DNA of 32,000 nucleotides. Origin: Halogeometricum borinquense DSM 11551. Lineage in GTDB: Archaea; Halobacteriota; Halobacteria; Halobacteriales; Haloferacaceae. Shown one piece after another: positions 5,999 to 29,583 of this stretch (positions are counted from its first letter, which is position 1; each line of letters starts with the position of its first letter). The DNA lies in assembly GCF_000172995.2 (NCBI RefSeq), contig NC_014729.1, forward strand, positions 1,620,001-1,652,000, in the 5' to 3' direction. Position numbers and translations under genes: made by a program. The notes beneath the pieces are model-generated. The model was not told where the DNA came from and did not search any database. It saw nothing but the letters and a program-made list of their open reading frames with translations.

Positions 5999-6147
5999 GC
6001 GCAGTCGTTTGTCGCCCGGGTACTCCCATGTTTCGCTCCGCACGACAGTCTGCGACGTGTCGCAGTTCGGCGCCACTCGGACGGATCGGTGTCAGACGCC
6101 GCGACCAAGGAGAATGTTGAAACGCTCACGGTGAGTGCAACACGACA

Positions 6148-7619: not shown

Positions 7620-10600
7620 CTATACTGCGGGTTTCGCCGCGAACGCCGACTCGGGGACGACGATAGATGATGACGTCGTGCTATCGGTCGAATCCGAGGA
7701 GTCAGACGAATCCGACGAACTGGACGAATCAGTTGATTCCGACGAATCCGACGACCCCGACGAGTCAGACGAATCCGAGGAGTCCGACGACTGACCCGTG
7801 GTCAGTTCGAGTTTCTGCGCCGTCCGCTGCAGTTCGACGGAGATGTCGCCGGCCTTGTCACCGTTGACCTGTCCCTCCGAGACGGAGAGGTTCGACTGGT
7901 AGCCAACGATGTAGCCGCTTTCGTTGAGACTTGCACCGGACGAGATGGTGTACGGGCCAGTCGCGCGGACGCTGACGTTCGTGTAGCCGTTGTCCGGGCC
8001 GTACTCGCTGTAGCCCGTCGTCGAGTACGGGAGCGTCATCGTGAACTCGCCGTCCTCGTTCGTTTGGGCCTGTTGTGTGTACTCGAATGTGCTGTTCTCG
8101 GTCGGAATCTCCATCTCGACGCTCGCGGTGACAGTGCTGTTCGCGGGCGCACCGCTACCTTGCACCGTCGCACCGGGGACGCGCTCGAAGCTCTTGACCC
8201 ACGCGGCACTGCTTCTCGGGAGCATTGCCTGCGGTCTGACCTGCGCGGCACGCGCGTCACCGTAGACGAGTTGCAGGTAGTCGTTCGACGAGGTGGCGCT
8301 GGAGTTGCTCACCTTCACGAGACGGTAGTGTTCGAGTGCTGGCACGCGCTCCTCGGGGAACGTACCGATGCCACCGATCTGCGAGGTTCCGTCTTCCTCG
8401 ACGAACTCCTTGGCCGCGCTCATGTTCCCATCGAAACTCCGGACGAGCGTCGCGTTACCGGCCGGATTACCGGCGACGCTTACGGGACCCTGCGACGTCT
8501 GTACGGTTCGCGGTTCCCAGTCTACGACGATGGCCGACGGGTCCTTCGCACTACCGTGGTAGTAGTACAGGCGCGTCATCATGCTGTCGTAGAACCGCTG
8601 GTCGCGGACGAGGAAGTTCCCAGTGGGTCTCCCATCGTTCAAGCGGTAAACGCGCTGTTCGTAGAATTCTGCGGACGAGAAGTTATCTTCGGCGTCGTAG
8701 AACACCGATGGAGCGCTGAACTTCGACCCGGGCGTGGCCATCTTCCAATCGACCATCACGTACCGGGTGTTGTTTCCTTCGGTGCTCTGGGAGGCGATAA
8801 CGTCCTGTGCTTGCGTCTCGTTCGGCGCGAGCAGGAAGTTCGCCGAGTCAGTTGCACCTTCCTGGAACGGGTTAGCGTTCGGGATTCGCTCACCTTGGAC
8901 GGTGATCCAGTGACCGTAGTCCCACCACGAGAGGATCCCGTAGGATCCGTCCGCGTACTGGAAGTCGTCGGTCTTCTCGTACGATCCGTAATACGCCATC
9001 TCGTTGTTCGCACCGCCGAACGTGCCTTCTTTCGGCGTGTTCTCTTTGGTCCACTCGAACGAGGATTCCCATTTGAGAACCTCACTCGGACTGTGCCCCT
9101 GGCTCGTCTCCCACGCCGTGTTCGACTTGTCGAGCGCCGCCGTTTCCGTGTTCCGGACGTTGAGCGGAACGAGGAGAACGGGTGCTGCGATGAGAAGAAC
9201 GACCATGGCGATCGAGACGACCTGATACAGTTCGAGATCCGTCACGGTCGACATCGTGGCGCGAACGTCGAGGAATGAGAGTACCTCGCTGAGGAGGTAC
9301 GCGTTCACGACGACGACGATGACGGCAAGATAGTAGTGGAAGCGAAGTTGGGTGAACGCCGCGGAGGTCATGAAGACCGCCCAGACGATGACGAACAGGT
9401 GTTCGGGGTCCTGCTTTGCGAGTAGCGCAGCACCGACGATAATGGCGCTCACCAGTGCGAGGCCGACAAGTTGACCGCTGATTCCGAGGAGGCTACCGAT
9501 GCCATTCGGGAAGGCGGGGACGAGGAAGATGAGTCCAATAATCGCCAGACCGCCGAAGACGTAGCCGTAGTCGCGGGTGTTGCCTCGCTGAACGAGCGGC
9601 TTTGCGAGCATCCACGTCGCACCCGCAATTCCAGTGAACAGCGTGAAACCGTAGTCGGCGACGATACGGTTCACTGGTGTCAGCTGAAGTCGGCTGAGAG
9701 TGTCGGGAGAGAGGTACGGTTGTGCCTCACCGATAGTCCGGGTCGTTGCACCGGCGCTGAACCCGAGGATGCGAAGGAAGTTGTTCGACAAGAGTCGCCA
9801 CATCCCGGGAAGTACGAAGTAGACGATCCCGAGTGAAATAAGAACGATCCCAAAGACGGCTGCGGGGTAGAAACTCGGACTCACGTCGCGGGATTCGAAC
9901 TGTCGAGCAAACCATGCGAGGAAGACAGCGCCACCAGCGACGATGAGTGCAAGAAGCGGCTGTACCAGTGAGAAACTGGTCGCAGAGAATCCGAACTCCT
10001 CGATTTGAATAACCATCAGCACGGCGGTGACACCCATGGAGACGGCGGCGACGAACGCCGTCGGCTCCGGGCTCTTCCCGTTCGCAACGTCGCTCGCCAT
10101 CTTCACGAGGACGAACGCCCCGAGGACGCCGACGATGAGAACACCCGGCGGCCACACCCACATATAGAGGGCCGTGGCAACGCCTGCGATGACTGCCCAC
10201 TTGGTCGACGACCGAATGGCGTCGAAGTCGCGCTCTGCGACGATTTCCCAGATGGGCATCTCTTTCTCGGCGACCGCGAACGCGATCAGTAATGCGGCGA
10301 CGGATATGGCTTGGAAGAACGGCTCGACACCGTTGTGGTCGGAGACGCCAACGAGGGTCCGCTGGAGGAACAGACCCGGCATGAGTCCGAGAAGAATCGC
10401 CGCAAAGACGCCCGGACCACGACCGGCGAGTCGTTTACCGATTATGTAGGCCGGAATCGCTGTCAGCGCGCCGAATACGGCGGGCGTGACCAACAGCGTC
10501 TTCGCAATGAGCTCTTGGCTTGGACTACCTAGTCCGATGACAAGAGCCGCAGTTGCGACGATTTGGTCGTAGAGCGTCCCGAACTGCCCGACGCTCGTTC

Positions 10601-10865
10601 CGTAGGGGAAATGCGTCCACGGGTCGAATGGTATCGTGGAGGGCCAATGCCTGACGGTGTAACTCACCTCGCGGAGATGATACCACGCGTCATTTCCGTC
10701 AAAGAACACTTCTCCGTTTCTGATAAACTTGCTATACGACTGGAGTCGGATGGTCAACATAAGGACCATCACCACGAGTAAGGCGGGGATGTGGTACCAG
10801 TCTTCGAAGCGCTCGAGGACCGAAGTCGTCTCGTGGTCCTCGCGACGCTCGTTGTCTACGCTCAT
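7620..10865 (-). CDS. aglB: Archaeal oligosaccharyltransferase AglB (STT3 family)
   Basis: 1081 aa with about 13 N-terminal transmembrane helices. The first-loop motif is FFDGNDAWYHLR, the EL5 TIxE motif is TRTIGEAQP, and the WWDYGHW motif sits at aa 647-653 (nt 8913-8927 encode WWDYG). A large C-terminal soluble domain carries many N-x-S/T sequons. The C-terminus ends in a Ser/Asp-rich tract. Confidence 0.95.
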   Translation of the reverse strand: MSVDNERREDHETTSVLERFEDWYHIPALLVVMVLMLTIRLQSYSKFIRNGEVFFDGNDAWYHLREVSYTVRHWPSTIPFDPWTHFPYGTSVGQFGTLYDQIVATAALVIGLGSPSQELIAKTLLVTPAVFGALTAIPAYIIGKRLAGRGPGVFAAILLGLMPGLFLQRTLVGVSDHNGVEPFFQAISVAALLIAFAVAEKEMPIWEIVAERDFDAIRSSTKWAVIAGVATALYMWVWPPGVLIVGVLGAFVLVKMASDVANGKSPEPTAFVAAVSMGVTAVLMVIQIEEFGFSATSFSLVQPLLALIVAGGAVFLAWFARQFESRDVSPSFYPAAVFGIVLISLGIVYFVLPGMWRLLSNNFLRILGFSAGATTRTIGEAQPYLSPDTLSRLQLTPVNRIVADYGFTLFTGIAGATWMLAKPLVQRGNTRDYGYVFGGLAIIGLIFLVPAFPNGIGSLLGISGQLVGLALVSAIIVGAALLAKQDPEHLFVIVWAVFMTSAAFTQLRFHYYLAVIVVVVNAYLLSEVLSFLDVRATMSTVTDLELYQVVSIAMVVLLIAAPVLLVPLNVRNTETAALDKSNTAWETSQGHSPSEVLKWESSFEWTKENTPKEGTFGGANNEMAYYGSYEKTDDFQYADGSYGILSWWDYGHWITVQGERIPNANPFQEGATDSANFLLAPNETQAQDVIASQSTEGNNTRYVMVDWKMATPGSKFSAPSVFYDAEDNFSSAEFYEQRVYRLNDGRPTGNFLVRDQRFYDSMMTRLYYYHGSAKDPSAIVVDWEPRTVQTSQGPVSVAGNPAGNATLVRSFDGNMSAAKEFVEEDGTSQIGGIGTFPEERVPALEHYRLVKVSNSSATSSNDYLQLVYGDARAAQVRPQAMLPRSSAAWVKSFERVPGATVQGSGAPANSTVTASVEMEIPTENSTFEYTQQAQTNEDGEFTMTLPYSTTGYSEYGPDNGYTNVSVRATGPYTISSGASLNESGYIVGYQSNLSVSEGQVNGDKAGDISVELQRTAQKLELTTGQSSDSSDSSDSSGSSDSSESTDSSSSSDSSDSSDSTDSTTSSSIVVPESAFAAKPAV

Positions 10866-10991: not shown

Positions 10992-12047
10992 CTATCGGTT
11001 CTCGTACCAATCGACGAATCGTTCGATACCTTCCTCGAAGCTGACCTGCGCCTCCCAATCGAGATGTTCGCGGGCGCGCGACGTGTCCGAGACGTACACC
11101 TTCTGGTCGCCCTCGCGCCACTCGTCGTACGAGATATCGGTCCGGGTACCGGTCTTCGATTCGAGAATGTCGAGGAACTCAAGGAGACTCGTCGTGTTCT
11201 CCGCACCCCCACCGATATTGTACACCGCAGGCTTGTCTTCCGGATCGGAGAGGAATGCGTCGTAGGCTCGGATGAGGTCCTTGACGTAGAGAACGTCACG
11301 AACCTGCTTTCCGTCACCGAATATCGTCAATGGCTCGTCCCGGAGTGTACTGATGGCGAAGTGAGCCACCCAGCCCTGGTCTTCGTTACCGAACTGACGA
11401 GTTCCGTAGATACAACTCATCCGGAACGCTGCGGCGTCTACTGCGCCGCGTTCGGCGTAGTCCTGAACGTAGAGGTCAGCCGTAAGCTTGGATACGCCGT
11501 AGGGGGTGTGTTCACAGCCGTCGATAGAGAGTGTCTCTGGGATTCCGTTCTCGAAGTCCGAGTCGTCGTACCAGTATCGGTTCTCCTCCTCGCGCACGGG
11601 GATTTCGTTGACGTTGTTCCCGTAGACTTTGTTCGTTGAAGCGACGACGACTGCGGGATCACTGTCGGCTTTTCGAGCGGCTTCGAGGACGTTGAACGTC
11701 CCTTCGGCGTTCACCTCAAAGTCCGTCCGTGGGTCCGTAAGCGACGCCGTCACGGCGACTTGCCCGGCCGTGTGGACGATTGCATCGTGCCCTTCTACGA
11801 TTGACTCGAGCGTCTCAAAGTCGCGGATGTCGGCCTCAACTAACTCAACGTCCGGGTAGTTCTCCTCGATGTAGTTCCAGTTGTAGGCCGCGGTGTTTCG
11901 GCTCTCGTCGGCCTTCTCTAGTGTTTCCGTTCGACTCAAATTGTCGAGTGCGGTCACGTCAGAACCGCGCTCTGCGTAGTACTCTACTGCGTGGCTTCCG
12001 ACGAATCCAGCACCACCCGTCACGAGCACGGAATCAAGTGTCGTCAT
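10992..12047 (-). CDS. Extended SDR, CDP-paratose/tyvelose 2-epimerase-like NDP-sugar epimerase
   Basis: Blocks shared with Salmonella CDP-tyvelose 2-epimerase as I recall it: TGGAGFVGS, DNLSR, HTAGQVAVTAS, STNKVYG, the YxxxK motif (PYGVSKLTAD), GTRQFGNEDQGWVAHF, GDGKQVRDVLYV and EGDQKVYVSD. Confidence 0.75.
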   Translation of the reverse strand: MTTLDSVLVTGGAGFVGSHAVEYYAERGSDVTALDNLSRTETLEKADESRNTAAYNWNYIEENYPDVELVEADIRDFETLESIVEGHDAIVHTAGQVAVTASLTDPRTDFEVNAEGTFNVLEAARKADSDPAVVVASTNKVYGNNVNEIPVREEENRYWYDDSDFENGIPETLSIDGCEHTPYGVSKLTADLYVQDYAERGAVDAAAFRMSCIYGTRQFGNEDQGWVAHFAISTLRDEPLTIFGDGKQVRDVLYVKDLIRAYDAFLSDPEDKPAVYNIGGGAENTTSLLEFLDILESKTGTRTDISYDEWREGDQKVYVSDTSRAREHLDWEAQVSFEEGIERFVDWYENR

Positions 12048-12053
12048 TGGCTC

Positions 12054-13181
12054 TCAGTTGTCCCCGACGAGGCCTTTGTCCTCTAGTTCAGCGTGGGCTT
12101 CCTCGAAGTTGTCTTGAGCGTCCTGTTCGCGTCCCCACTCGACCAACTCACGCATTCCTTCCTCAAATGTCACGGAGGGTTTGAAGTCTAAGAGTTCCGC
12201 TGCACGCGACGTGTCGGCGTAACAGTGGCGGATGTCTCCCTGTCGGAAGTCGTTAGCAATCTCAGGTTCTAACTCGTCACTCTTGCCGTACAGATCGATG
12301 AGCGTCTCGGCGATTTCGGTGATAGTCTTCGGATTCCCCGTTCCGAGGTTGAGCGCCACGTCTTCGGCTTCGTCTCGTTCCATAGCGAGTCGGTTCGCTC
12401 GGGCGATATCACTGATGTGGATGAAGTCGCGCGTCTGTTCACCGTCCTCGAAGATGAGTGGTGGGTTGTCGTTCTTGATTCGACTGGAGAAGATCGCACA
12501 GACTCCCGTGTACGGGTTCCCGAGGGCCTGACGACTCCCGTAAATGTTGAAGTACCGGAGTGCAACTGCCGGAATATCGTACGAACGTGCGACTGATAGC
12601 GTCAGCTCCTCTTGATCTTTCTTGCTGATGGCGTAGACGCTGGTACTCTCTCGGGGTTTTTTCTCGGATGTCGCAATAGGCTCTAACTCGGTTCCACAGT
12701 CCGGGCACACGTGTTCCCACTGTCCCTCGGCCATCGTTTCGGAGCCGCGTAGCGATGGGTAATGGAGAGTATCTTCTTCCGGACAGTGGTACGCGCCTTC
12801 TCCGTATATTGACATCGAGGACGCGACGACAATCTTCTCAAGCGAAATATCCTCGTTGACGATAATGTCGAGAATACGGGCAGTGGCAAGCGTATTCACT
12901 TCAACGTACTTTTCGATCTCGTACATCGACTGGCCGACGCCGACTGCGCTCGCTTGGTGGTTCAGTACGTCTGCCTCTTCTAGGAGTTCCGTCATTAACT
13001 CCCGATCGCGGACGTCTCCCCAGACGTACTCGGCTTCATCGTTCAGATAGTCGGGTTCATCGTCGTGGACTTGTTCTGTCAGATTATCCACGACAGTCAC
13101 GTCGTATCCGGATGCGACGAGTTCGTCGACAATGTGACTCCCGACGAATCCCGCGCCTCCTGTTACGAGGACGTTCGTCAT
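12054..13181 (-). CDS. Extended SDR NAD-dependent sugar epimerase/dehydratase with a ~35-aa Cys/His-containing insertion
   Basis: The motifs are TGGAGFVGSH, the catalytic Ser region SSMSIYG and the YxxxK motif (VYAISKKDQ). About 60 residues separate the Ser block from YxxxK, against about 25 in GalE-type enzymes. The insertion contains YHCPEED...WEHVCPDCG. Confidence 0.75.
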   Translation of the reverse strand: MTNVLVTGGAGFVGSHIVDELVASGYDVTVVDNLTEQVHDDEPDYLNDEAEYVWGDVRDRELMTELLEEADVLNHQASAVGVGQSMYEIEKYVEVNTLATARILDIIVNEDISLEKIVVASSMSIYGEGAYHCPEEDTLHYPSLRGSETMAEGQWEHVCPDCGTELEPIATSEKKPRESTSVYAISKKDQEELTLSVARSYDIPAVALRYFNIYGSRQALGNPYTGVCAIFSSRIKNDNPPLIFEDGEQTRDFIHISDIARANRLAMERDEAEDVALNLGTGNPKTITEIAETLIDLYGKSDELEPEIANDFRQGDIRHCYADTSRAAELLDFKPSVTFEEGMRELVEWGREQDAQDNFEEAHAELEDKGLVGDN

Positions 13182-13245
13182 ACTCGGTCGGTGGATACCG
13201 CGGTCTAATAAAAACCGTGGTTTAAAAATATCTGATGTGTCTCTA

Positions 13246-14187
13246 TCAGTCGTCGAACGCTTCGATGGTCCGTTTGAGGCCTTTTTCTAGACCGATGGTC
13301 GGTTCCCAGTCGAGCATCCCTGTGGCTTTCGAGATGTCCGGGCGGCGAATCTTCGGGTCATCTTCGGGCAACGGTTCGTACGTAATATCCGAGTCGGTAT
13401 CCACGATTTCGAGTATCAGCTCAGCGAGTTCGAAAATCGTTACCTCGTCGGTGTTCCCGACGTTGACAACTTCTCCCTTCGCCACCTCACTGGGCGCGTC
13501 TGCGAACGCTCGAATACCGGCGATGAGGTCAGAGACGTAACAGAAACTTCGGGTCTGAGAACCGTCGCCGTAGACCGTCAGATCTTTTCCTTCGAGTGCT
13601 TGCGTGAGGAAGTTCGGAATAACTCGGCCATCGTCTTGGCGCATCCGCGGCCCGTAGGTGTTGAATATTCTCACAGTGCGGATGTCGAGAGAGTGCTGTG
13701 CCTCGTAGGCGACAGCAAGCGCCTCTGCGAATCGCTTGCTTTCGTCGTACGGAGCTCGTGGGCCACGGACGTTAACGTTCCCACGATACTCCTCGTGTTG
13801 GGGATGTTCCTCAGGATCACCATACACTTCGCTGGTGGACGCAAGGACGACGCGAGCCTCGTGCTCCGACGCGAACTGAAGCGCGTTGTGGGTTCCCATT
13901 CCGTTCGCCAGCGCAATCTCAACTGCGTGGGAATCGAAGTCTTTCGGACTTGCACGGGACGCAAAGTGATAGACCACACCTACGTTGTTGAGAGATGGGA
14001 ACGGTTCGCTTACGTCGTGGTTGATAGTCTCGAATCGCTCCGCGTCGACGTGTTCGAGATTTTCGGGGCGACCGCTTCCGAAGTTGTCGAGGACGGTTAC
14101 TTGGTAGCCGTCATTGAGCAACGAGTCAACAAGATGACTCCCAAGGAACCCCGCTCCACCGGTTACAACCGCGTGTTGATCACTCAT
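13246..14187 (-). CDS. UDP-glucuronate decarboxylase (UDP-xylose synthase, UXS type SDR)
   Basis: Signature blocks: [44 protein letters not shown] (YxxxK), [18 protein letters not shown] and [19 protein letters not shown]. The size is 313 aa. Confidence 0.85.
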
Positions 14188-15194
14188 AGGTTCACCGTAC
14201 TGCTGTCGCCGACGTTGAGGTGATTTGCTTCACCGTGAACACGGGCACTGCTGCCGACGATGCTGTGTTCGAGGTTCGCGCTCTCAAGCGTCGCCTCCCC
14301 GCCGATGATACTGTCTTTGATGATGCTGTTTCTGATGCTTGTCCCACTGTCAATACTCACGTTCGGCCCGATAACGCTCGATTCGAGCGTCACGTCGTCG
14401 CCGATGTCAACAGGTGGAACGATGACCGCACTGTCGGTATGGACTGTTCCCAGCGACTCCTGTTTCGAGAGAAGAACTCTATTGGCCTCTAACAACGTCC
14501 CCGGACGGCCACAGTCGTACCAGTTGTAAACCTCGAACGTTCCGAGGTCCGCTTCGAAATCAATCATTCGCTGGAGGGCATCAGTGAGTTGATATTCACC
14601 GCCTGCACCACGTTCGTCGTTTTCGACGAGTTCCGCAAGGCTGTCGAACAACAGATCGCTGTCTTCGATGAGATAGATTCCGCTAATCGCCAAGTCCGAC
14701 GGTGGGTTATCCGGTTTTTCGACGAGTTGCTCGATTCGTTCTTCTCCGTTTACTTCGACCACACCGTAATGCTGCGGTTCTTCGACTTGCTTGACACCGA
14801 TACTCCCATCGACGTCATCCAGTTGGTTATGTGCCTGAAGGAATTTCTCGTATCCCTTCTCGAACAGCATGTCTCCCAACGCGATGAGCAATGAATCTCC
14901 TCGGCAAACCTCCTCGGCCTGATAGATACTGTGACCCAACCCTTCGGCTTGTTCTTGTTCGACGAATGTAATGTCGAACCGGTCGCCGAACATGGCTGTG
15001 CTGTAGTCAATTATTTGAGCCTTCATCTGTCCCCCCACGACGATGACGACTTCCTCGATTCGTGTGTTACTCAAACTCACGAGGATATGACCGAGAATCG
15101 GGCGTCCCGCCAGCCGAACCATCGCCTTCGGCTTGGTGTGTGTCTGAGGATAGAGTCTTGTCCCCTGTCCTGCGGCGGGGATAACTGCCTTCAT
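14184..15194 (-). CDS. Sugar-1-phosphate nucleotidyltransferase, long form with a C-terminal left-handed beta-helix (RmlA-long / AglF-like)
   Basis: The N-terminal block is [20 protein letters not shown]. The sequence also has EYQLTDALQ and [14 protein letters not shown]. The C-terminus shows hexapeptide-like repeats ([17 protein letters not shown]). The stop overlaps the UXS start (ATGA at 14184-14187). Confidence 0.85.
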
Positions 15195-15339
15195 ACTGGC
15201 CAGATAAAGGAATGAGATGAAAAATACTGTGTTCCAGATATCTTCTTATACACACACAAGTTAGGTCAGCAGTGGATCGATTATTTCGAAGCTACGCAGA
15301 GAACAAGAGTTTTAACGTTCCTTGAATCTCTATCCGGTA
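15195..15339. promoter_or_regulatory. AT-rich divergent promoter region between the nucleotide-sugar operon and the GT2 block
   Basis: A TATA-like GTTTTAACG (about 15309-15317) lies about 27 nt upstream of the ATG at 15340. On the other strand an ATTTTTCAT element lies about 30 nt upstream of the ATG at 15194. The spacing suggests leaderless or short-leader transcripts. Confidence 0.45.
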
Positions 15340-17100
15340 ATGTTCGTTTCGCTGGTTGTCCCAGCACACAACGAGGTCGGTAATTTGGAACGCCTCGTTG
15401 ACTCGGTAACGTCGGAGCTATCTCCGCCGAGGTTCGACCACGAGTTGGAAATCCTCCTCGTGGACGACAACAGTACCGACGAAACTCCTGGCCTCTGCGA
15501 TCAACTCGAACGAGAGTATTCGTCGGTCACGGTGGTTCACCGCCACGATAACCCTGGGTTTGGGAACGCGGTAAAAGAAGGGCTTTCGACAGCCTCTGGC
15601 GATATCATCATTCCGTTCATGGGCGATTTATCCGATAGCCCTAGCGATGTACCGAAGCTTGTCGAAGCTATCGAGGACGGGTACGATGTCGCCTACGGGT
15701 CTCGATTCACCGAGGGAGGTTCTGTTGACGGTTACCCTCCGGTTAAGCTGCTGTACAACCGCTCGTTCAACAATCTCATCCGTTTACTGTTCGGTATCCG
15801 GTCAAAAGACGTGACAAACGCTTTTACCGCGTATCGTCGTGAAGTGATCGAGGAAATCGGCGTCGAAACGCTTGATTCCGATAGTTTCGATATCACTGCT
15901 GAACTACCACTTCGAGCGCACATTCTCGGTTTCACGAGTACGGAAGTTCCAGTTACGTGGCAGAGTCGAGACGCCGGCGTAAGCAAACTTGATGCCACGA
16001 GGAAGGGGCCGGTCTACCTCAAACGACTTTCTGACTTGTTCGTTACTGGCAACCTCGTTGGACTGCGGGATCTACTCAGTGCGATTACCAGCGGTGGACC
16101 GCTTCGAATTGTCGGTGCGGCAGTGTTCGGCATCGCAATTCTCGTCGGCCTGTTCTCGCTGACCGGATTCGAGGGCGTCTTCCAGACGCTCAGTGATGCC
16201 CAACCTGCTTGGATTCTCGCTGCTGCGGGGATGTATGGTTCGACGTTCGCCTTCCGGACGTGGCGCTTCCGCGTTCTCCTTCGGACTGCGGGCCATATGG
16301 CATCGCGCGGTGGGGTTCTCAGAAGCATCTTCACCGGGTGGTTTGTGAACTTCCTGATACCCGCTCGGGCCGGTGATGTAGCTCGCGGCCTCGCGCTCAA
16401 ATCGACCGAAGACGTTCCATTCGGCGTCACGAGCGGCCTGGTTGTCGTCGAACGAATCCTCGACATGCTGATGCTCGGATTACTGATGGGTATCGTGACA
16501 TTGATGTTTCTCTCGAACAGCCAAGGTCGCTTCCTCGCCCTCGCCGCCTTTGGTCTCGCACTCGTCCTTCTCGTGGGTCTCGTCGTCCTCGTACAGTTAG
16601 ATGAGCGAATTGCAGACCGGTTCGAGTCTCGTTTCCCGCGTATCCGCGAGGGATTAGCCGGTCTCAGACACGCCGTGGGTTCTTTGCTCGACAATCCGTA
16701 CGCGCTTGCACTCGCACTCTTCCTCAGTCTCCCGGTCTGGTTGCTTGAGGCTAGCACACTGTTCCTTAGTGCCCGCGCACTCGGTGTCTCTCTCGACCTC
16801 ATCGTTGGCTTAACGGCGTCCGTCGCAGCGTTCCTCACGCAGGCCGTTCCTGTGACACCGGGCGGTTTGGGTACGTACGAGGCGGCCATTGCGGGCGTTC
16901 TGAGTCTGTTCAGCATCTCGACGACCCTCGGGACAAGTATCGGTTTGATCGACCACTTCATGCGTCTCGCGTTCGTCTACATCTTGGGTGCAATCAGCAC
17001 GGTCCACATCGGATTTCGGTCTCGAAGCTACTTCCGAGACCGGAGCACACAGGACTCGAGTAGTTCGAACGCGAATTCGCAATCGTTCACGAACAAGTAG
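15340..17100 (+). CDS. GT2 dolichyl-phosphate-sugar synthase-like glycosyltransferase fused to an MprF-type (UPF0104, flippase-like) multi-span membrane domain
   Basis: The N-terminal GT2 part has VVPAHNE, LLVDDNSTDET and FMGDLSD (the DxD region). From about nt 16100 there are 7-8 hydrophobic helices with the LPG-synthase-TM-like signature WRFRVLL...FLIPARAGDVARG (16351-16389). I chose the ATG at 15340, because the track start at 15322 is a TTG. Confidence 0.8.
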   Translation: MFVSLVVPAHNEVGNLERLVDSVTSELSPPRFDHELEILLVDDNSTDETPGLCDQLEREYSSVTVVHRHDNPGFGNAVKEGLSTASGDIIIPFMGDLSDSPSDVPKLVEAIEDGYDVAYGSRFTEGGSVDGYPPVKLLYNRSFNNLIRLLFGIRSKDVTNAFTAYRREVIEEIGVETLDSDSFDITAELPLRAHILGFTSTEVPVTWQSRDAGVSKLDATRKGPVYLKRLSDLFVTGNLVGLRDLLSAITSGGPLRIVGAAVFGIAILVGLFSLTGFEGVFQTLSDAQPAWILAAAGMYGSTFAFRTWRFRVLLRTAGHMASRGGVLRSIFTGWFVNFLIPARAGDVARGLALKSTEDVPFGVTSGLVVVERILDMLMLGLLMGIVTLMFLSNSQGRFLALAAFGLALVLLVGLVVLVQLDERIADRFESRFPRIREGLAGLRHAVGSLLDNPYALALALFLSLPVWLLEASTLFLSARALGVSLDLIVGLTASVAAFLTQAVPVTPGGLGTYEAAIAGVLSLFSISTTLGTSIGLIDHFMRLAFVYILGAISTVHIGFRSRSYFRDRSTQDSSSSNANSQSFTNK

Positions 17101-17201
17101 TTCGGCTCTAGCCTCTCGTTTTGGCAAGAAAACGTCAGATTCATTCTCCTCGTCTCCGCGTAAGGATAATCTTAAGCAACCCCCGAATAAGACTGGCCTA
17201 T

Positions 17202-17918
17202 ATGTACCAAGGGAATCGGGTGATGGTCGGGATGCCCGCTTACAATGAGGCGGAGAATATTGCGACCGCAGTGGAGAATTTCTTGGCCCAAAATACGGTT
17301 GACGAAGTCGTCGTCGTTGACAATAACTCATCCGATAACACCGCAGAACTTGCTGAAGAGGCTGGCGCGACCGTCGTATCTGAGACGAGACAGGGGTACG
17401 GATACGCCTGTCAGCGCGCCTTCCAAGAGATGTACGAACACGACTCAGATCTCCTCGTCCTCGTCGAACCCGACGGGACGTTCGTCGCGGACGATATCGA
17501 GAAGTTGCTTTCCTACTCGTCTGACTTCGATTTCGTAGTCGGTACGCGCACATCTCCACAGCTCATCTGGGAGGGTGCAAACATGGACCCGTTCCTCCGG
17601 TGGGGAAACTGGTTCGTGGGAAAACTTGTCGAAGTACTGCATAACACGTCGAATCTGACTGACGTAGGATGTACGTTCCGCCTCATCAAAGCTGACGCAT
17701 ACGAGGATATTCGTCACCGATTCCGTATCGGTGGATCGCACTTCTCACCCCACATGCTCATTGAGGCGGCCCGTGAGGACATCTCGATGATAGAGATCCC
17801 GGTCAACTATCGCTCGCGGAAGGGGACCTCGAAGATTACGGGTGAACGCTGGCCGGCGTTCAAACTCGGCCTTGTGATGATCTGGCTCGTCGTCTCTGAG
17901 TGGTACAGCGACAACTGA
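17202..17918 (+). CDS. GT2 family glycosyltransferase (short, DPM1/dolichyl-phosphate-hexose synthase-like)
   Basis: The motifs are GMPAYNEAENI, VVVDNNSSDNT and LVEPDGTF, with a C-terminal amphipathic/hydrophobic tail (FKLGLVMIWLVV). I prefer the ATG at 17202 because a TATA-like GGATAATCTTAAG lies about 30 nt upstream. The track start at 17121 adds an Arg-rich non-coding-like extension. Confidence 0.75.
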   Translation: MYQGNRVMVGMPAYNEAENIATAVENFLAQNTVDEVVVVDNNSSDNTAELAEEAGATVVSETRQGYGYACQRAFQEMYEHDSDLLVLVEPDGTFVADDIEKLLSYSSDFDFVVGTRTSPQLIWEGANMDPFLRWGNWFVGKLVEVLHNTSNLTDVGCTFRLIKADAYEDIRHRFRIGGSHFSPHMLIEAAREDISMIEIPVNYRSRKGTSKITGERWPAFKLGLVMIWLVVSEWYSDN

Positions 17919-18030
17919 CGGGACAGATCATGCAATTTTCCTCTGATATGAGAAACATCCCACCTATGCCCGTCATTCGGGACTGTGTCGTGTTCCGTCT
18001 TCGACCGCTCTGCCGAGTCTCTGTCCGCCC

Positions 18031-19800
18031 ATGAGTCTCACACCGGACGGCCTTAGGTCGAGAGTCGCTTGGATTCCAGTCGGTATCACTGCTGTCGTTG
18101 CTGCCGTGTTAGCCATCCCGGCGCTGACCGACTCGTTCGCCGGTGATGAGATGGTGTTTGTCGGAGCGATGCGAGCGGCGGCCGAGACGGGACGACCGCT
18201 ATTTTACAAGAGTGTCCAGTTTGGTCAACAGTGGGGAATGTGGCATCCGCCGACGTACGTTTACTCCGTTGCGGCGGCTATCGTGGCTTTTGGAACCAAT
18301 ACGATAGTCATCCGCGGCGCGACGTTCGTTGCGACGTTGCTGACGCTTCCGCTACTCGTCGCTCTCGTCAACACACTCGTTGACCGTGACGCTGTCTCGG
18401 TTCGCAAGTCGTGGCGGTCGCCCTCATGGCAACTCGCTGCACTGGTCCTTGCTCTCTACGTGCTCTCGCCGTTGACGATTCAGAACGGCACGCTCGTAGA
18501 CATCGACGGCAGTCTCTTGCCTATTGGCGTTACGGCGTTTATCCTGTACGCAATTCGGACATTCGAACGGGACGGTCCGATCCCGAAATCTCGGTATATT
18601 GGGCTCGCGATATTGTTTGCGGGCGTTTCGTGGATAAAATTTGGTCCGCTTCCTGTCCTCGTCGCATCGTTTGTCGGCTACCTCGTCCTCCGCGGCCAGT
18701 ATCGGCGACTGCTACCGGCTGTCGCCGCCTTGGTGGTCGGGTTCGGATTGTTCTCTGTGACGTGGTGGGGCGTCTCGTCAGCTCTCGACTTACCGTTTTG
18801 GCGACCGTACGAACACAACTTCGGGATGCTTCTGTCTGGGGGTGACGGCCGTGAAATCGCCCTTCAGACGCGACTGATGCTCAGCGGGTGGGCCGGCTAT
18901 GCCTCACTGCTGTGGCTTTCACCGTTTCTTGTCCTGTTGGCAGTTGGCTCGCTCGTCTCGAACCAGGAGACTGCCCGCCCGACGCTTGAGTGGCTACAAA
19001 ATCGTGCACCGGTCCTCTTCGTCGGCGCTGTTGCTGTTCTCACTTACGTCCAGTACACTGTTCTTGCGAAGCTTCCCTACGGATTCCCGAAGTACATGGG
19101 CATATCGACGCCTTTGTTTGCGGTTCTTGCTGCGGTGTGTGTCGCTCACTTCCTCGATGCACCGCTCGAAACCCGTCGTCTCTGGCGTTTCGGTGCAGTT
19201 CTCGCGGGAGTCGTCGCCGCAGTCACGTTCCTCGCACCTGACCCATTTTACGTCTCGTTTAACAAGGGAACGATGGCCGTCCTACTCCGTGCTGGTGGGA
19301 CAGTTCTTGCCTACTCTGTTGGATTCGCGTCGGTATACGCCCTCTTCGATCACGTTGAAACAGGTGTAGAACTGAATCGGTCGTCGATTGCTGCTGTGGC
19401 ACTCGTCGTCTTGCTTGTCGGGACTAACGGCGGATTGATTCTCACGCAGGCGACAGCGGGGTACAGCACACACTACGACTACGGCCAGAAGGGGAATGAT
19501 GAGGTACTCTCGTACGTCAAAGAGACGTATGCTGACCTCCCAGCTGACGAGCAGTCTGAGGTCGTTGTCCCATTCGATATCGGACTCAAACTCCGTGAAC
19601 CGTACCACGACACCGAACTCTACTCCGTCTCGGATCTCGAGGATAGTCAACCACCGCTAGTCATCGTCAAACACCGAAAGTACTACGCCGTCAATTCGGC
19701 GCTGTTGGATCGACTGAACGACCATTCCGACTACTCGAAGCGGACTGTCGGATCGTTCTCTATATTCATCCGAGAAGACGTTTCGACAGAACAGAACTGA
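18031..19800 (+). CDS. GT-C fold membrane glycosyltransferase (PMT_2/ArnT-like, polyprenyl-phosphate-sugar dependent)
   Basis: 589 aa with about 12 hydrophobic helices. A DE motif (FAGDEMVFVG) follows directly after the first helix, as in the PMT and ArnT families. The C-terminal ~110 aa are soluble and acidic. Confidence 0.55.
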   Translation: MSLTPDGLRSRVAWIPVGITAVVAAVLAIPALTDSFAGDEMVFVGAMRAAAETGRPLFYKSVQFGQQWGMWHPPTYVYSVAAAIVAFGTNTIVIRGATFVATLLTLPLLVALVNTLVDRDAVSVRKSWRSPSWQLAALVLALYVLSPLTIQNGTLVDIDGSLLPIGVTAFILYAIRTFERDGPIPKSRYIGLAILFAGVSWIKFGPLPVLVASFVGYLVLRGQYRRLLPAVAALVVGFGLFSVTWWGVSSALDLPFWRPYEHNFGMLLSGGDGREIALQTRLMLSGWAGYASLLWLSPFLVLLAVGSLVSNQETARPTLEWLQNRAPVLFVGAVAVLTYVQYTVLAKLPYGFPKYMGISTPLFAVLAAVCVAHFLDAPLETRRLWRFGAVLAGVVAAVTFLAPDPFYVSFNKGTMAVLLRAGGTVLAYSVGFASVYALFDHVETGVELNRSSIAAVALVVLLVGTNGGLILTQATAGYSTHYDYGQKGNDEVLSYVKETYADLPADEQSEVVVPFDIGLKLREPYHDTELYSVSDLEDSQPPLVIVKHRKYYAVNSALLDRLNDHSDYSKRTVGSFSIFIREDVSTEQN

Positions 19801-19852
19801 CAACCGGTTTGCCGTCAAAGGGTTTGTATTCCGGGCTGGCTACCGTTCGTCG

Positions 19853-21220
19853 TTACCGATTGAATTGTATCGGGTTCCGGAACTGAATTTCGACACTACG
19901 CCATCGAATCTCTAAGATACCCCACGTGAACAGACTTCCAACGCACAGCATCGCGCCAAGCAGTTCGTACACGCCGACCCAACCAGGTAGCAAGAACATC
20001 ACGCCGTGGACTAGTTTGTTCGGGAAGAGCGACGTGATCATTCCAGGAATGCGCGACACCAAACTTGGCTTGGCTTGCTCTGTATCGACTACGTCGCCGG
20101 GTTCTCTCGACGGTAGTCCAAGCGCTGCGGCACTTTCTCCCCCGGCACTTTCGTCTCCAGTCCCGAGCCGTTCGGCTTCGTACGCCATCTGAATCTCGTA
20201 CGACCAGACAATTTCGCCATCGGTGTTGAGATCGATGACCCGACCGGCGGCAGTATCGGTCACGAGGGTATTCCCGTTCGGGAGTCTGTCAGCGTCTCGT
20301 GGCCACGACATCGTCCTGTCTTGCCACGTCCACGACTCGACCCATTCACCCTCCGACCGCTGGAACTCAACGATCCGGTTGTTCTCCGAGTCAGCGACGA
20401 TGACAGCGGGTCCACCCATCTTCGTGGGAATGTAGTCGGGGTTGTGCTGTTCGTATATCGTCTCGAACTCGTCTTCGCCTCCGAGGGTCCACGACTCCTC
20501 AAGACCCGACCGGTTCAAGAACACCACTTGGTCTTGGTTACGGAGGCTGGCCATGATGCGGCCGTCGTCAAGCAGTTCGACGTCGTTGATATGCGTCCAA
20601 TCATACGGGTACGCACCGCCGCCGTTACGGGGGAACGACTGTTCGGCGCGCCATTTCCACACAATCGTGCCCGTCTCAATGTTTAGGAGATGGACGTTAT
20701 CTCGGGCTATGTCTGCAACGAGGTAGTGTGTCTCATTCACACGGTCTACATCGTGCCACTGGACGGTTTCCGTACGACCGATACGTCGCGGCGGCCGCCA
20801 CGGATACGTCCGACTGTACAGCGTCTTCACTTCGCCGGTCGTCAAGTTTACTGTCCGGATGAGGTTCTTCCGACAACTGGTTACGCTCTTGCACTCTGAC
20901 GGAGAGAGCGTTTCACTGGCACCAAACAGGAGTGTCGACTTCTTATCCGATACTGGATCAACGTCCCAGTACGAATCGTGCTCTGTGTGTTTGTAGTACT
21001 CTGTGTTGTCCGCTCCGACGACCACAAACTTTGCAGTCGCGTGCGGACTATCAGCGACTGTTATCGCTGTTAATTCCTGCGAAACGTTTGGTGAGTACGT
21101 CGCAGTCTTCGATTCTTCTCCACTAACCGATTCATAACTGACATAACCCGATGCGACAGTACTGCTTCCGAGAAGCAGCACTATAAGTAGCGCAAATCGG
21201 GCTTTGGTCCGTCCCCCCAT
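19853..21220 (-). CDS. Membrane-tethered extracytoplasmic arylsulfotransferase (ASST)-like beta-propeller protein
   Basis: An N-terminal signal/anchor (KARFALLIVLLLGSSTVASG) and C-terminal hydrophobic segment(s) (VMFLLPGWVGVYELLGAMLCVGSLFTWGIL) bracket the soluble part. The central region has ASST-like blocks as I recall them: WTHINDVELLDDGRIMASLRNQDQVVFLN, YEQHNPDY, ADSENNRIVEF and LPNGNTLVTD. The assignment comes from motif memory only. Confidence 0.5.
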   Translation of the reverse strand: MGGRTKARFALLIVLLLGSSTVASGYVSYESVSGEESKTATYSPNVSQELTAITVADSPHATAKFVVVGADNTEYYKHTEHDSYWDVDPVSDKKSTLLFGASETLSPSECKSVTSCRKNLIRTVNLTTGEVKTLYSRTYPWRPPRRIGRTETVQWHDVDRVNETHYLVADIARDNVHLLNIETGTIVWKWRAEQSFPRNGGGAYPYDWTHINDVELLDDGRIMASLRNQDQVVFLNRSGLEESWTLGGEDEFETIYEQHNPDYIPTKMGGPAVIVADSENNRIVEFQRSEGEWVESWTWQDRTMSWPRDADRLPNGNTLVTDTAAGRVIDLNTDGEIVWSYEIQMAYEAERLGTGDESAGGESAAALGLPSREPGDVVDTEQAKPSLVSRIPGMITSLFPNKLVHGVMFLLPGWVGVYELLGAMLCVGSLFTWGILEIRWRSVEIQFRNPIQFNR

Positions 21221-21404
21221 CGTTCTGTGACCGTCTGTGGAGAGACATAGTACAAGAAGTTACTGTATAGTACTGCATCATTTTAGAATGATTGTCACTT
21301 CTATCCAATTTCCCCACAAACTACTCAATGATTTGCCACACTAGTTATCAAATTCTGTATTTGGTGGCGAAGATACTTGTACGGTACCGATTCAGATCAC
21401 TGGT
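21221..21404. promoter_or_regulatory. AT-rich divergent promoter region between the ASST-like gene and the FkbM operon
   Basis: This is the most AT-rich spacer in the island. It has a hairpin/palindrome ATCATT-TTAG-AATGAT (21277-21292) and the direct repeat ATAGTAC at 21247-21253 and 21267-21273. Confidence 0.45.
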
Positions 21405-22238
21405 ATGCAGTCTCTGGTACGGAGCGCGAGGGAGGTGTACCGTCATGACGGTCCTCTCTCGGTTTTCAAGTGGGGTTTGAAATGGGGGGCATGGCGAATT
21501 GGCTTAAATAACGTGTATCAACAGTTCGTTTCCGACCATCTCGTCCTTCCGTTGGACGATCTCAGTGTGTCGTTTGCCTCGTCCGGTGCGAGTGTCTTCT
21601 ACGACTTCACCGACGATTTCGAGAGCGAGAAGGACATCGTCTCGGAAGTTCTCGATGCTGTCGAGGGCGGCGACGTGTTCTATGATATTGGGGCGAATAT
21701 CGGCCTGTACGCGTGTTTCGTCGGAACCGCGTCTGACGACATCGACGTCGTCGCGTTCGAGCCGAGTCACAGAGCTAGTAGCGAGCTACGTAAAAACATT
21801 GAACTCAACCGTCTCGACGTGCAGATCCGTTCCGAAGCGCTCTCCGATGAGTGCGGTACGGCCTCGTTCGTGGATGAGGGATTGACGCAGAATCACCTCC
21901 AGTCTCGCGCCGAGACAGGGACAGCCGACGCTACCGAAGTGCCGATAGTGACTGGTGATTCGCTCGTAGACGACGGCGAAACGCCCCACCCGACAGTAGC
22001 GAAAATCGACGTCGAAGGCGCGGAGATGCAGGTCCTCCAGGGGCTCGACGCGGAACTCAGCCGTCCGGAGTTCAGAACCGTGTTTTGCGAGGTTCATCCC
22101 CGAAAGCTCCCCGAATACGATAGTTCGCCCGAGGAAGTCGAACAGTTCCTCCGAGAACGGGGGTTCTCGCTGGAAACTCTCTACGAGCGCCGTTCGCAGT
22201 ATTATCTCAAGGCTGTGAAGGACGACCACGAGGAGTAG
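21405..22238 (+). CDS. FkbM-family SAM-dependent methyltransferase
   Basis: The motifs are VFYDIGANIGLYA, VVAFEPSHRASSELRKNIELNRL and KIDVEGAEMQVLQGL. The stop lies 3 nt before the next ATG. Confidence 0.8.
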   Translation: MQSLVRSAREVYRHDGPLSVFKWGLKWGAWRIGLNNVYQQFVSDHLVLPLDDLSVSFASSGASVFYDFTDDFESEKDIVSEVLDAVEGGDVFYDIGANIGLYACFVGTASDDIDVVAFEPSHRASSELRKNIELNRLDVQIRSEALSDECGTASFVDEGLTQNHLQSRAETGTADATEVPIVTGDSLVDDGETPHPTVAKIDVEGAEMQVLQGLDAELSRPEFRTVFCEVHPRKLPEYDSSPEEVEQFLRERGFSLETLYERRSQYYLKAVKDDHEE

Positions 22239-29514: not shown

Positions 29515-29583
29515 CCTCTCTTCACCGCGGAAGACTCTACTGAAGCGGTGGCTATTTGGCAGTGTGCCGCCGAACGCATCTCA

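Follow-up and report, generated by a model that had tools for sequence, protein, structure and literature searches.

The closest described counterpart of the gene considered here is AglD (HVO_0798) of Haloferax volcanii, in which an N-terminal cytoplasmic GT2 glycosyltransferase domain that charges dolichyl phosphate (Dol-P) is followed by a C-terminal PF03706 domain (PMC5898192). The product of AglD is used outside the cell by a GT-C enzyme, AglS. In 2015, Makarova, Galperin and Koonin related the C-terminal part of AglD (arCOG00899, pfam03706/UPF0104) by homology to the flippase domain of MprF, noted that a PMT/STT3-like enzyme and an AglD-like glycosyltransferase are encoded in a conserved neighbourhood, and predicted that all members of COG0392 probably have flippase activity (PMC5898192). 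The prediction was repeated in the PplT preprint, where N-terminal fusions to family-A glycosyltransferases were noted in Euryarchaeota (10.1101/2022.03.11.483950), and COG0392 is currently named ‘Predicted membrane flippase AglD2/YbhN’. No translocation experiment on an archaeal member is reported in the 2015 paper, the preprint, or the COG and NCBI names, and the membrane crossing of dolichyl-phosphate monosaccharides was still called unresolved in 2026 (PMC12992685). Here, a gene of this kind from Halogeometricum borinquense DSM 11551 is described. It lies at 15340 to 17100 of a 32,000-nucleotide stretch of contig NC_014729.1 (positions 1,620,001 to 1,652,000), referred to as the window, and all coordinates without another label are those of the window. 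A first-pass annotation of the window had read the gene as a candidate Dol-P-hexose synthase fused to its own flippase and had pointed to the similar two-part architecture of Haloferax AglD, which the literature bears out (PMC5898192). The synthase-plus-flippase reading is a reasonable one and is partly supported, but it is not new.

Other described systems also join or pair an enzyme with a membrane domain. In bacterial MprF (7duw, 6lvf, 9goe), an enzyme that modifies lipid headgroups is fused to a PF03706 translocation domain. It has been reported that subdomain 1 of MprF supports the translocation of lysyl-phosphatidylglycerol, with roles assigned to individual residues, including those of a gate loop (PMC8131360), and that PaMprF needs no energy source to scramble a wide range of lipids (PMC11980842). 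Standalone PF03706 proteins, such as E. coli YbhN, other single PplT proteins and GpgF/HexF, are associated with phospholipid or glycolipid enzymes; a general lipid-translocation role is proposed for them, and their flippase activity is likewise a prediction (10.1101/2022.03.11.483950, PMC12713373). Another kind of fused synthase is the type-III dolichyl-phosphate mannose synthase of Pyrococcus furiosus (PfDPMS; 5mlz, 9ep0). A 2026 study proposes that its transmembrane (TM) domain, which binds flipped Dol-P-mannose (Dol-P-Man), flips the enzyme’s own product (PMC12992685).

The H. borinquense gene encodes a cytoplasmic synthase domain and a PplT domain in one polypeptide:

15340 to 17100, + strand: GT2::PplT fusion gene of 586 amino acids (aa), from the open reading frame (ORF) and the Pfam families PF00535 and PF03706
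15340 to 15969, + strand: cytoplasmic GT2 catalytic domain, aa 1-210, of the polyprenyl-phosphate glycosyltransferase type
15970 to 16098, + strand: linker and long juxtamembrane helix, aa 211-253 (helix 219-249 and low-confidence loop 212-215 in the AlphaFold2 (AF2) model)
16099 to 17034, + strand: PplT / LPG_synthase_TM domain, aa 254-565, with about eight TM helices, two of them broken (PF03706; AF2)

The first-pass annotation held that one ORF joins a GT2 to a UPF0104/LPG-synthase-TM domain, and hidden Markov model (HMM) searches agree. Pfam identifies PF00535 Glycos_transf_2 (E 1.9e-31) and PF03706 LPG_synthase_TM over the full length of the model (HMM positions 2-302 of 302; E 8.1e-52; 177 bits against a cut-off of 33.4), and the NCBIfam model TIGR00374 ‘flippase-like domain’ matches as well (E 8e-32; 110.9 bits, cut-off 43.2). 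The best protein match, at 99% identity, is an H. borinquense protein that NCBI names ‘flippase-like domain-containing protein’. The ORF, which ends at 17100 on the + strand, offers two starts, TTG at 15322 and ATG at 15340. The ATG is the likely one as judged from the alignment, because homologs begin at an equivalent MxxVSxVVPAHNE, and residues are numbered from it (M1 = 15340). A TATA-like TTTTAA at 15310-15315, 25-30 nucleotides 5' of this ATG, would fit a leaderless haloarchaeal transcript. The AF2 model of the protein has a pLDDT of 87.3 and a pTM of 0.84. Mean pairwise identity among the homologs is 61% in the GT2 domain, 47% in the PplT domain and 13% in the C-terminal tail. The fusion is genuine, since the same single ORF is found in all 120 listed homologs and in 56 loci; an assembly artefact or artefactual gene fusion is thereby ruled out.

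The synthase half of the protein is the better supported one. The first-pass annotation described it as a DPM1-like GT2 with three motifs, and both the motifs (VVPAHNE at aa 6-12, DDNSTDE at 42-48 and GDLSD at 95-99) and the polyprenyl-phosphate type stand; the supposed DXD, however, is actually M-G-D:

15619 to 15636, + strand: degenerate DXD motif M94-G-D96-L-S98-D99, aligned with PfDPMS D89-A-D91-L-Q93

When the GT2 domain is compared with PDB sequences by phmmer, PfDPMS (5mlz) is the best match (E 2.5e-26), followed by ArnC and GtrB. The first 25 Foldseek ranks of the fusion model are taken by the same three (PfDPMS as 5mlz/9ep0/5mm1; E 1.7e-13 to 3e-8), and the best 50 matches of the full-length model all fall in the GT2 domain. 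PfDPMS is thus the closest solved GT2 homolog and, like the fusion, a synthase joined to a TM domain; its TM domain, however, is a four-helix, GtrA-like one that is unrelated to PF03706. Structures of PfDPMS place Asp89 in contact with the donor's mannosyl moiety, Asp91 at the metal, and R117, R131 and S135 around the Dol-P phosphate (PMC12992685). Asp91 corresponds to D96, Arg117 to R122, Arg131 to K136 and Ser135 to N140, each of them invariant (59/59). Asp89, the first Asp of the DXD and the equivalent of AglD Asp110, corresponds to M94, which is equally invariant (59/59), as is Ser98 (59/59). Because the metal and phosphate residues of PfDPMS map so conservatively, the acceptor of the GT2 domain is very probably dolichyl phosphate, and the protein is highly likely to be a Dol-P-sugar synthase. 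The donor is probably other than GDP-mannose, since the Asp that contacts the mannosyl group in PfDPMS is an invariant Met here. The Dol-P-hexose named in the first-pass annotation is doubtful as the product, given this Met and the linkage of the gene to a UDP-xylose synthase and a 2-epimerase-like short-chain dehydrogenase/reductase (SDR), described below.

Homologs of this GT2 domain also exist in unfused form. Mostly bacterial, they are about 240 aa long and have no TM segment, yet they lie beside SDRs and GT-C-like proteins. One such locus carries an ArnT-like protein and two small proteins of 3-4 TM helices. In the Granulosicoccaceae locus L002 (7583-10720 of that locus), a 514-aa protein with eight TM helices, membrane proteins of 139 and 129 aa, and an unfused GT2 homolog are found, in a gene order reminiscent of ArnT-ArnE-ArnF-ArnC. 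MxD-type GT2 domains are also fused to S-adenosylmethionine-dependent methyltransferase domains (TylF-like, Methyltransf_11) without a membrane domain (P0140, P0144, P0149). Pfam searches with the other MxD-type GT2 proteins return such fusions to methyltransferases or to unknown regions, which are uninformative on flipping.

A HMMER scan of 1.84 billion representative proteins separates the fusions into two groups. Full-length fusions with at least 41% identity to the H. borinquense protein form a compact clade, and other GT2-PF03706 fusions, at only 28-31%, are set off from it by a gap. The members of this second clade carry DxDLAT, DHQCGF and WFWDTE with spacings of 27, 61 and 28 residues, an exact match to the residues D110/D112, R139, D173-Q175-C176-G177-F178 and W198...D201...E203 that were experimentally defined in AglD (PMC2877612). 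In their place the clade of the window has FMGDLSD, DVTNAF and FDITAE, and only the Arg (R122) is common to both. The aglD gene is not part of the agl cluster and has housekeeping genes around it (PMC4335974, PMC5867893), whereas the fusion gene lies 4.5 kb from aglB, with a UDP-glucose dehydrogenase, a UDP-xylose synthase and a TyvE-like SDR; in Haloferax sp. ATB1, a copy linked to aglB shows the same order of genes. It could be argued that the gene is nevertheless the AglD of H. borinquense and makes Dol-P-mannose for the last N-glycan sugar, as it has the two-domain architecture of AglD (PMC5898192) and as one homolog (P0086) is automatically annotated ‘Glycosyltransferase AglD’. Such an assignment is hardly credible, as the AglD residues belong to the other clade (PMC2877612), a Met stands at the position of the essential D110 of AglD, and the gene sits in the aglB cluster with its SDR module instead of a housekeeping locus. 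A canonical AglD ortholog is thus ruled out by GT2 motifs, identity and location. By its motifs, the fusion belongs to a clade distinct from AglD, within the known AglD-like GT2-PplT kind, and its donor sugar, unlike that of AglD, is probably not mannose. In the PplT domain, the two clades resemble each other: the motifs N-x3-P-x-R-x-G-D, PGGxGxYE and DHxx[R/K] are present in both and persist in the AglD-type clade despite the low overall identity.

These three motifs occupy defined positions in the membrane domain:

16348 to 16389, + strand: motif N337-x3-P341-x-R343-x-G345-D346-x2-R349 at the TM3a/3b break (invariant columns)
16849 to 16881, + strand: loop P504-V-T-P507-G-G-L-G-T-Y-E514 at the TM7a/7b break, equivalent of the MprF gate loop (RtMprF Pro273...Glu280)
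16951 to 16965, + strand: D538-H539-F-M-R542 in the last TM helix, which may correspond to the gate Arg (YRxxY) of MprF

The family signature read in the first-pass annotation as FLIPARAGDVARG at 16351-16389 is exactly the translation of these positions. In the AF2 model, helices are broken at 340-343 and 503-511, which coincide with the two best-conserved motifs of the domain, and the modelled breaks would match TM3a/b and TM7a/b of MprF (PMC8131360). The PF03706 family is linked to the solved MprF structures through E. coli YbhN (E 3e-22 and 2e-17). A global hhalign alignment, which is usable for the PGGxGxxE loop but leaves both the gate Arg and the N337 motif ambiguous, sets P507-G-G-L-G-T-Y-E514 opposite hiPaGiGvlE of YbhN and vPGGVGVFE of PaMprF; the counterpart of MprF Asn117 in the N337 motif is accordingly ambiguous. 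In the homolog alignment, P507, G509 and G511 are invariant and E514 is conserved in at least 90%. D538 and R542 are invariant as well, position 542 being Lys in the AglD-type clade. About ten polar or charged residues in or flanking the TM helices are invariant or, in the case of E514, nearly so: N337, R343, D346, R349, R372, D375, N452, E514, D538 and R542. By its predicted topology, the domain would start from the cytoplasmic side, as TM1 of MprF does.

With MprF, the fusion thus shares the P-G-G-x-G-x-x-E gate motif and, going by the AF2 model, apparently the broken-helix loops (PMC8131360), and several differences stand beside this likeness. The enzyme domain is C-terminal in MprF and N-terminal here, and no DUF2156 aminoacyl-transferase domain is present, as Pfam finds only PF00535 and PF03706. 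MprF has 14 TM helices, whereas the fusion has about eight after residue 254, corresponding to subdomain 1 only. The YRxxY of MprF is DHxxR in the fusion. Finally, MprF acts on a glycerophospholipid, whereas the presumed substrate here is a polyprenyl-phosphate sugar.

The first-pass annotation had allowed that the membrane part could turn out to be a replaceable anchor with no conserved polar groove, and the domain proves to keep the gate-loop motif of MprF as well as polar residues that are invariant within the membrane part. Conservation of the polar motifs and the PGGxGxxE loop across both fusion clades argues that the domain is more than a mere anchor. Anchoring alone would not require it either, since homologous GT2 domains lack any TM segment. 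We give about an even chance to a contribution of the PplT domain to the translocation of Dol-P-sugars; the evidence for this flippase step consists of homology and context.

The context was compared in 44 non-redundant loci, ranging from Halobacteria to Methanoregula boonei, with features counted over 35 or 37 loci; a contig search with the single fusion protein had returned only four distant GT2-only loci. The window itself carries an agl N-glycosylation cluster, which holds the genes tabulated here along with further GT2 and GT4 enzymes, sulfatases and an FkbM methyltransferase. The sugar-nucleotide genes and their neighbours are:

6148 to 7440, + strand: UDP-glucose 6-dehydrogenase AglM (NCBIfam equivalog NF041297, 752.8 bits, cut-off 670)
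7620 to 10865, - strand: oligosaccharyltransferase AglB (STT3; PF02516, PF22627, PF18079)
10992 to 12047, - strand: CDP-tyvelose-2-epimerase-like (TyvE-like) SDR, 351 aa (phmmer: 9rl0 E 1e-69, 1orr E 6e-60)
12054 to 13181, - strand: GalE-like SDR, the haloarchaeal ‘second SDR’ (UDP-sugar 4-epimerases of the PDB over stretches 3-138 and 170-354; SDR cluster 3)
13246 to 14187, - strand: UDP-glucuronate decarboxylase (UDP-xylose synthase, UXS), 313 aa (phmmer: human UXS1 4gll/2b69, E 2e-94)
14184 to 15194, - strand: sugar-1-phosphate nucleotidyltransferase (AglF/RmlA-long-like), divergent from the fusion (PF00483 E 2e-37)

The nucleotidyltransferase matches the NCBIfam rmlA_long and AglF models below their cut-offs, and its gene is syntenic in loci L005, L008, L012 and L093. 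The GalE-like SDR has an insertion of about 30 aa with HCPEED...VCPDCG between the two halves of its fold, which is kept in haloarchaeal fusion loci.

In 27 of 35 loci, the 2.6 kb upstream of the fusion contain two or more SDR genes, and in 33 of 35 they contain at least one. The TyvE-like group (SDR cluster 0), to which the 351-aa SDR of the window belongs, is present in 31 of 35 fusion loci. The second SDR comes in two alternatives, the GalE-like form with the insertion in haloarchaea and a 352-aa form in methanogens. UXS is found within 4.5 kb of the fusion in 17 of 35. The linkage reaches as far as Methanoregula boonei, whose fusion is 48% identical and whose locus carries a UXS ortholog 52% identical to that of the window. 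The fusion is thus part of a module that has been kept from Halobacteria to Methanomicrobia; it comprises UDP-glucose (UDP-Glc) dehydrogenase, UXS, the TyvE-like SDR and another SDR, and usually also includes a PMT_2/ArnT-like GT-C. A chain from UDP-Glc through UDP-glucuronic acid (UDP-GlcA) and UDP-xylose (UDP-Xyl) to an epimerised product would be consistent with the altered donor pocket. Given the conserved module and its Arn-like layout, the sugar handled by the fusion is probably derived from UDP-GlcA/UDP-Xyl rather than being mannose, glucose or an ordinary hexose. Literature searches on archaeal Dol-P-pentose or UDP-xylose N-glycan pathways and on H. borinquense glycans returned nothing specific.

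Downstream of the fusion, two modules can be told apart in the relatives. In module A, a PMT_2/ArnT-like GT-C comes after the fusion, and its start overlaps the stop codon of the fusion (L005, L008, L012, L014, L015, L093, L095); such an overlap is seen in 6 of the 9 halo-like loci and also in L093 and L095. In module B, a 238-aa GT2 is followed, often after an EamA-type protein, by a GT-C of 564-589 aa (L011, L012, L095). The protein between the GT2 and the GT-C is an EamA/TMEM234-like (ArnE/F-like) membrane protein of 121-128 aa in L011 (7635-8000) and L095 (5851-6237), and is absent from L012; in L010, a GtrA-like gene accompanies another GT2. It would seem, by analogy, that a ‘flippase slot’ is taken by EamA or GtrA-like proteins in such parallel modules. 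In the window, the fusion is followed directly by module B, and tblastn with EamA queries finds no match in the window. The genes in question, with the other GT-C enzymes of the cluster, are:

17202 to 17918, + strand: small GT2 of 238 aa that may be another Dol-P-sugar synthase (PF00535 E 2.8e-18)
18031 to 19800, + strand: 589-aa GT-C-fold enzyme of a small unannotated haloarchaeal family (AF2 and Foldseek)
22242 to 23498, + strand: GT87-family GT-C (PF09594 E 4.8e-14)
23620 to 24864, + strand: GT87-family GT-C (PF09594 E 1.9e-17)

The first-pass annotation had correctly placed a short GT2 next to the fusion and a GT-C after it. In NCBIfam, the small GT2 is AglJ / Dol-P-hexose-transferase-like, below the equivalog cut-offs. 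The 589-aa protein has no match in Pfam and NCBIfam and only 9 homologs, and an iterated PMT_2 HMM detects it. It has a GT-C fold, because its AF2 model (pLDDT 76) matches ArnT in Foldseek (5f15, E 1e-8, probability 1.0) and then AftA, AglB and ALG3/9. Two further GT-C genes had been placed 4 kb downstream; both are indeed GT-C enzymes, of the GT87 family, but they start 5.1 and 6.5 kb past the fusion stop. The cluster thus has three GT-Cs besides AglB, all of which need flipped Dol-P-sugars. The proposal that the fusion feeds the GT-C next to it fares less well, since synteny in the relatives makes the 589-aa GT-C the partner of the small GT2, and pairs the fusion with the PMT_2 enzyme that is absent here. 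BLASTP of the 589-aa protein against the relatives’ PMT_2 partner gives no significant similarity.

Taken together, a bifunctional enzyme of AglD architecture, from a distinct clade, is the explanation that we favour. In the first step, which is well supported, a cytoplasmic GT2 of the DPMS/ArnC/GtrB type would move one sugar from a nucleotide sugar to dolichyl phosphate. Synteny and the active-site residues suggest that the donor would be supplied by the nucleotidyltransferase, AglM, UXS, the TyvE-like SDR and the second SDR. The eight-TM PplT domain, a homolog of MprF subdomain 1, would then lower the barrier for the crossing of the Dol-P-sugar headgroup, acting as an energy-independent scramblase that is driven by consumption of the lipid outside, with the product handed from the synthase to the outer leaflet. 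Finally, an outer-face GT-C would use the flipped lipid; in the relatives it would be the PMT_2/ArnT-like enzyme. As the latter is absent here, the consumer would be one of the three other GT-Cs of the cluster or a gene elsewhere in the genome. As a whole, we regard this sequence of synthesis, scrambling and outer-face use as evenly balanced between right and wrong.

Several observations weigh against it. The window lacks the PMT_2 partner gene, and only 9 of 37 loci (6 of 9 halo-like, 3 of 28 methanogen-type) have an HMM-recognisable GT-C next to the fusion. Only the first subdomain of MprF is present, whereas MprF builds two cavities from 14 TM helices in two subdomains. A profile of the C-terminal domain finds no match among PDB sequences, MprF included, the subfamily profile being too narrow. 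With the same profile, hhalign against YbhN alone gives 10% probability and aligns only the N-terminal half, and a forced global alignment to YbhN and PaMprF gives E 7e-5 at 35% probability. The MprF gate Arg (RtMprF Arg304) is set by hhalign at H539, three residues before R542. Neither an ArnB-like aminotransferase nor a formyltransferase is found among the annotated ORFs of the window, and the identity of the sugar is inferred. A further point comes from Hfx. volcanii, where the delivery of Dol-P-Man involves the Wzx-like AglR though AglD has a PplT domain (PMC3871713, PMC4335974). As AglR is implicated, the PplT domain of AglD is apparently not sufficient for moving Dol-P-Man, and a Wzx-type gene is present in the cluster of the fusion too:

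31055 to 32000, + strand: partial Wzx/MOP flippase gene (AglR-like, Polysacc_synt_3; ATG 31055) that runs off the window, a rival flippase candidate

A window without a Wzx-type flippase is ruled out by this gene at the right edge, which shows 40% identity to the Wzx of L093 by tblastn (E 1e-62) and matches PF13440 (E 1e-11); most related clusters contain a gene of this type as well. Neither this gene nor that of AglB had figured in the first-pass annotation. The PplT domain might then be an anchor, or a platform for presenting dolichol phosphate or for oligomerisation, with the flipping done by the MOP protein from 31055 on or by some other scramblase. In keeping with such a role, access to the lipid acceptor depends on TM or interface helices in each of DPMS, GtrB and ArnC. 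Wzx-type proteins, however, are generally assigned to the flipping of oligosaccharide-lipids. An anchor of eight TM helices is also unnecessary for GT2 homologs that work unfused, and about ten conserved polar or charged intramembrane residues with a gate-loop motif, across clades 28-31% identical, are unlike an anchor. Such a role for the domain is rather unlikely on balance.

The scarcity of recognisable GT-Cs in methanogen-type loci brings in another possibility, namely that the GT2 glycosylates an archaeol-based phospholipid or glycolipid and that the PplT domain exports the finished glycolipid, a remodelling of the MprF, GpgSDF or HexSDF kind in which no GT-C takes part. All characterised PplT substrates are glycerolipids (PMC8131360, PMC11980842), and in the GpgSDF and HexSDF operons a candidate flippase of the PplT type stands beside a glycosyltransferase (PMC12713373). 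GpgS, however, is a GT4 and not a GT2 (PMC12713373), whereas the GT2 of the fusion is specifically of the polyprenyl-phosphate type with a conserved phosphate-binding triad for Dol-P. The fusion gene lies within an aglB cluster, and a PMT_2 GT-C is translationally coupled to it in haloarchaeal loci. Several methanogen-type loci, moreover, have large unannotated polytopic proteins after the fusion. At least one large polytopic protein is present in 19 of 22 long loci, and in four loci beyond those with a recognisable GT-C, an unannotated protein of 9-11 TM helices with an acidic motif after TM1 starts less than 60 nucleotides downstream of the fusion. Unannotated proteins of 449-805 aa and 9-11 TM helices flank the fusion in L051 (8664-10286), L032 (8779-11196), L039 (6005-7939), L045 (6436-7785) and L006 (2749-4398, - strand), with acidic motifs after TM1 such as WDQW, GLDPSW and SDDW. 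These unannotated proteins have no Pfam match; among the large polytopic neighbours in methanogen-type loci, Pfam recognises a single PIG-U/PIG-M-like protein. Judged by their TM counts, the acidic motif and weak HMM matches, the unannotated proteins may be new GT-C families. Glycolipid export by the fusion appears improbable.

Traffic in the opposite direction has to be considered as well:

4964 to 6076, - strand: DUF368/VCA0040-like (PopT-type) polyprenyl-phosphate transporter candidate (PF04018 E 2e-63)

Its match to the NCBIfam polyprenyl-phosphate transporter model (E 1e-54) is below the cut-off. The gene adjoins those of AglM and AglB, an arrangement that is also seen in Halopelagius (L005), and its product may flip Dol-P back for reuse in the agl cluster. 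Could the PplT domain itself serve mainly to return free dolichyl phosphate from the outer leaflet to the active site of the synthase? Scramblases are bidirectional (PMC11980842), the Dol-P released outside by GT-C reactions must return, and a recycler fused to an enzyme that consumes Dol-P would make kinetic sense. A DUF368/PopT-like transporter is, however, already in the cluster. Recycling is also compatible with the favoured explanation, as a scramblase would do both, and as the main function of the domain it is highly improbable.

The layout of the fusion loci mirrors the bacterial Arn pathway (Ugd, ArnA, ArnC, ArnE/F, ArnT), with the PplT domain in the place of ArnE/F. Both have a UDP-Glc dehydrogenase, a UDP-GlcA decarboxylase-type SDR, an ArnC-like GT2 (ArnC being the second-best PDB family) and a dedicated flippase slot; an ArnT/PMT_2-like GT-C is present in the relatives and an ArnT-fold protein in the window. 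The differences are that no ArnB aminotransferase, ArnA formyltransferase, ArnD deformylase or ArnE/F pair is found among the annotated ORFs of the window, that the decarboxylase is of the UXS type and not ArnA, that the flippase slot is held by a fused PplT domain instead of an EamA-type ArnE/F pair, and that the carrier is dolichol. One may therefore imagine an undescribed Arn-like archaeal pathway with unfused bacterial counterparts, in which an unusual sugar derived from UDP-GlcA/UDP-Xyl, possibly a pentose, would be made by the UDP-Glc dehydrogenase, UXS, the TyvE-like SDR and the second SDR, loaded onto dolichyl phosphate by an MxD-type GT2, translocated by the PplT domain and used by a PMT_2/ArnT-like GT-C, the H. 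borinquense variant having lost its cognate GT-C and EamA. At present this wider scheme is a doubtful, tentative one.

Other features of the cluster were observed alongside. On the - strand at 19853-21220 lies the gene of a beta-propeller protein that resembles arylsulfotransferases and has hydrophobic segments at both termini; it may act as a glycan sulfotransferase outside the cell. A sulfatase is spread over two ORFs on the + strand, 29548-30435 (Sulfatase N-part) and 30512-30997 (SGSH_C), probably through a frameshift or as a pseudogene, with an intact sulfatase beside it at 28117-29514. The G+C content is 0.53-0.57 over 12000-22000 and 0.60-0.63 in the first 8 kb; the low-G+C stretch fits a horizontally exchanged glycosylation island.

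How a Dol-P-monosaccharide crosses the membrane is a long-standing question of glycobiology, and the fusion is among the cleanest candidates with which it can be put to the test, as a synthase is covalently fused here to a homolog of the one bacterial lipid scramblase domain that has been characterised well. The idea has been in print since 2015, and the value of the gene is therefore practical rather than conceptual. Haloarchaea lend themselves to genetics, and the positions to be mutated are defined: N337, R343, D346, E514, D538 and R542. What is new is a second fusion clade, set apart from AglD and tied to a specific sugar-nucleotide module and a GT-C. Nature also provides variants for comparison, namely the unfused GT2, the GT2 accompanied by EamA or GtrA, and the H. 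borinquense cluster without PMT_2. If the wider Arn-like scheme is true, the PplT domain would be the first identified scramblase for a dolichyl-phosphate monosaccharide. H. borinquense would then have lost EamA and the cognate GT-C, and its single PplT domain may serve two synthases and non-cognate GT-Cs.

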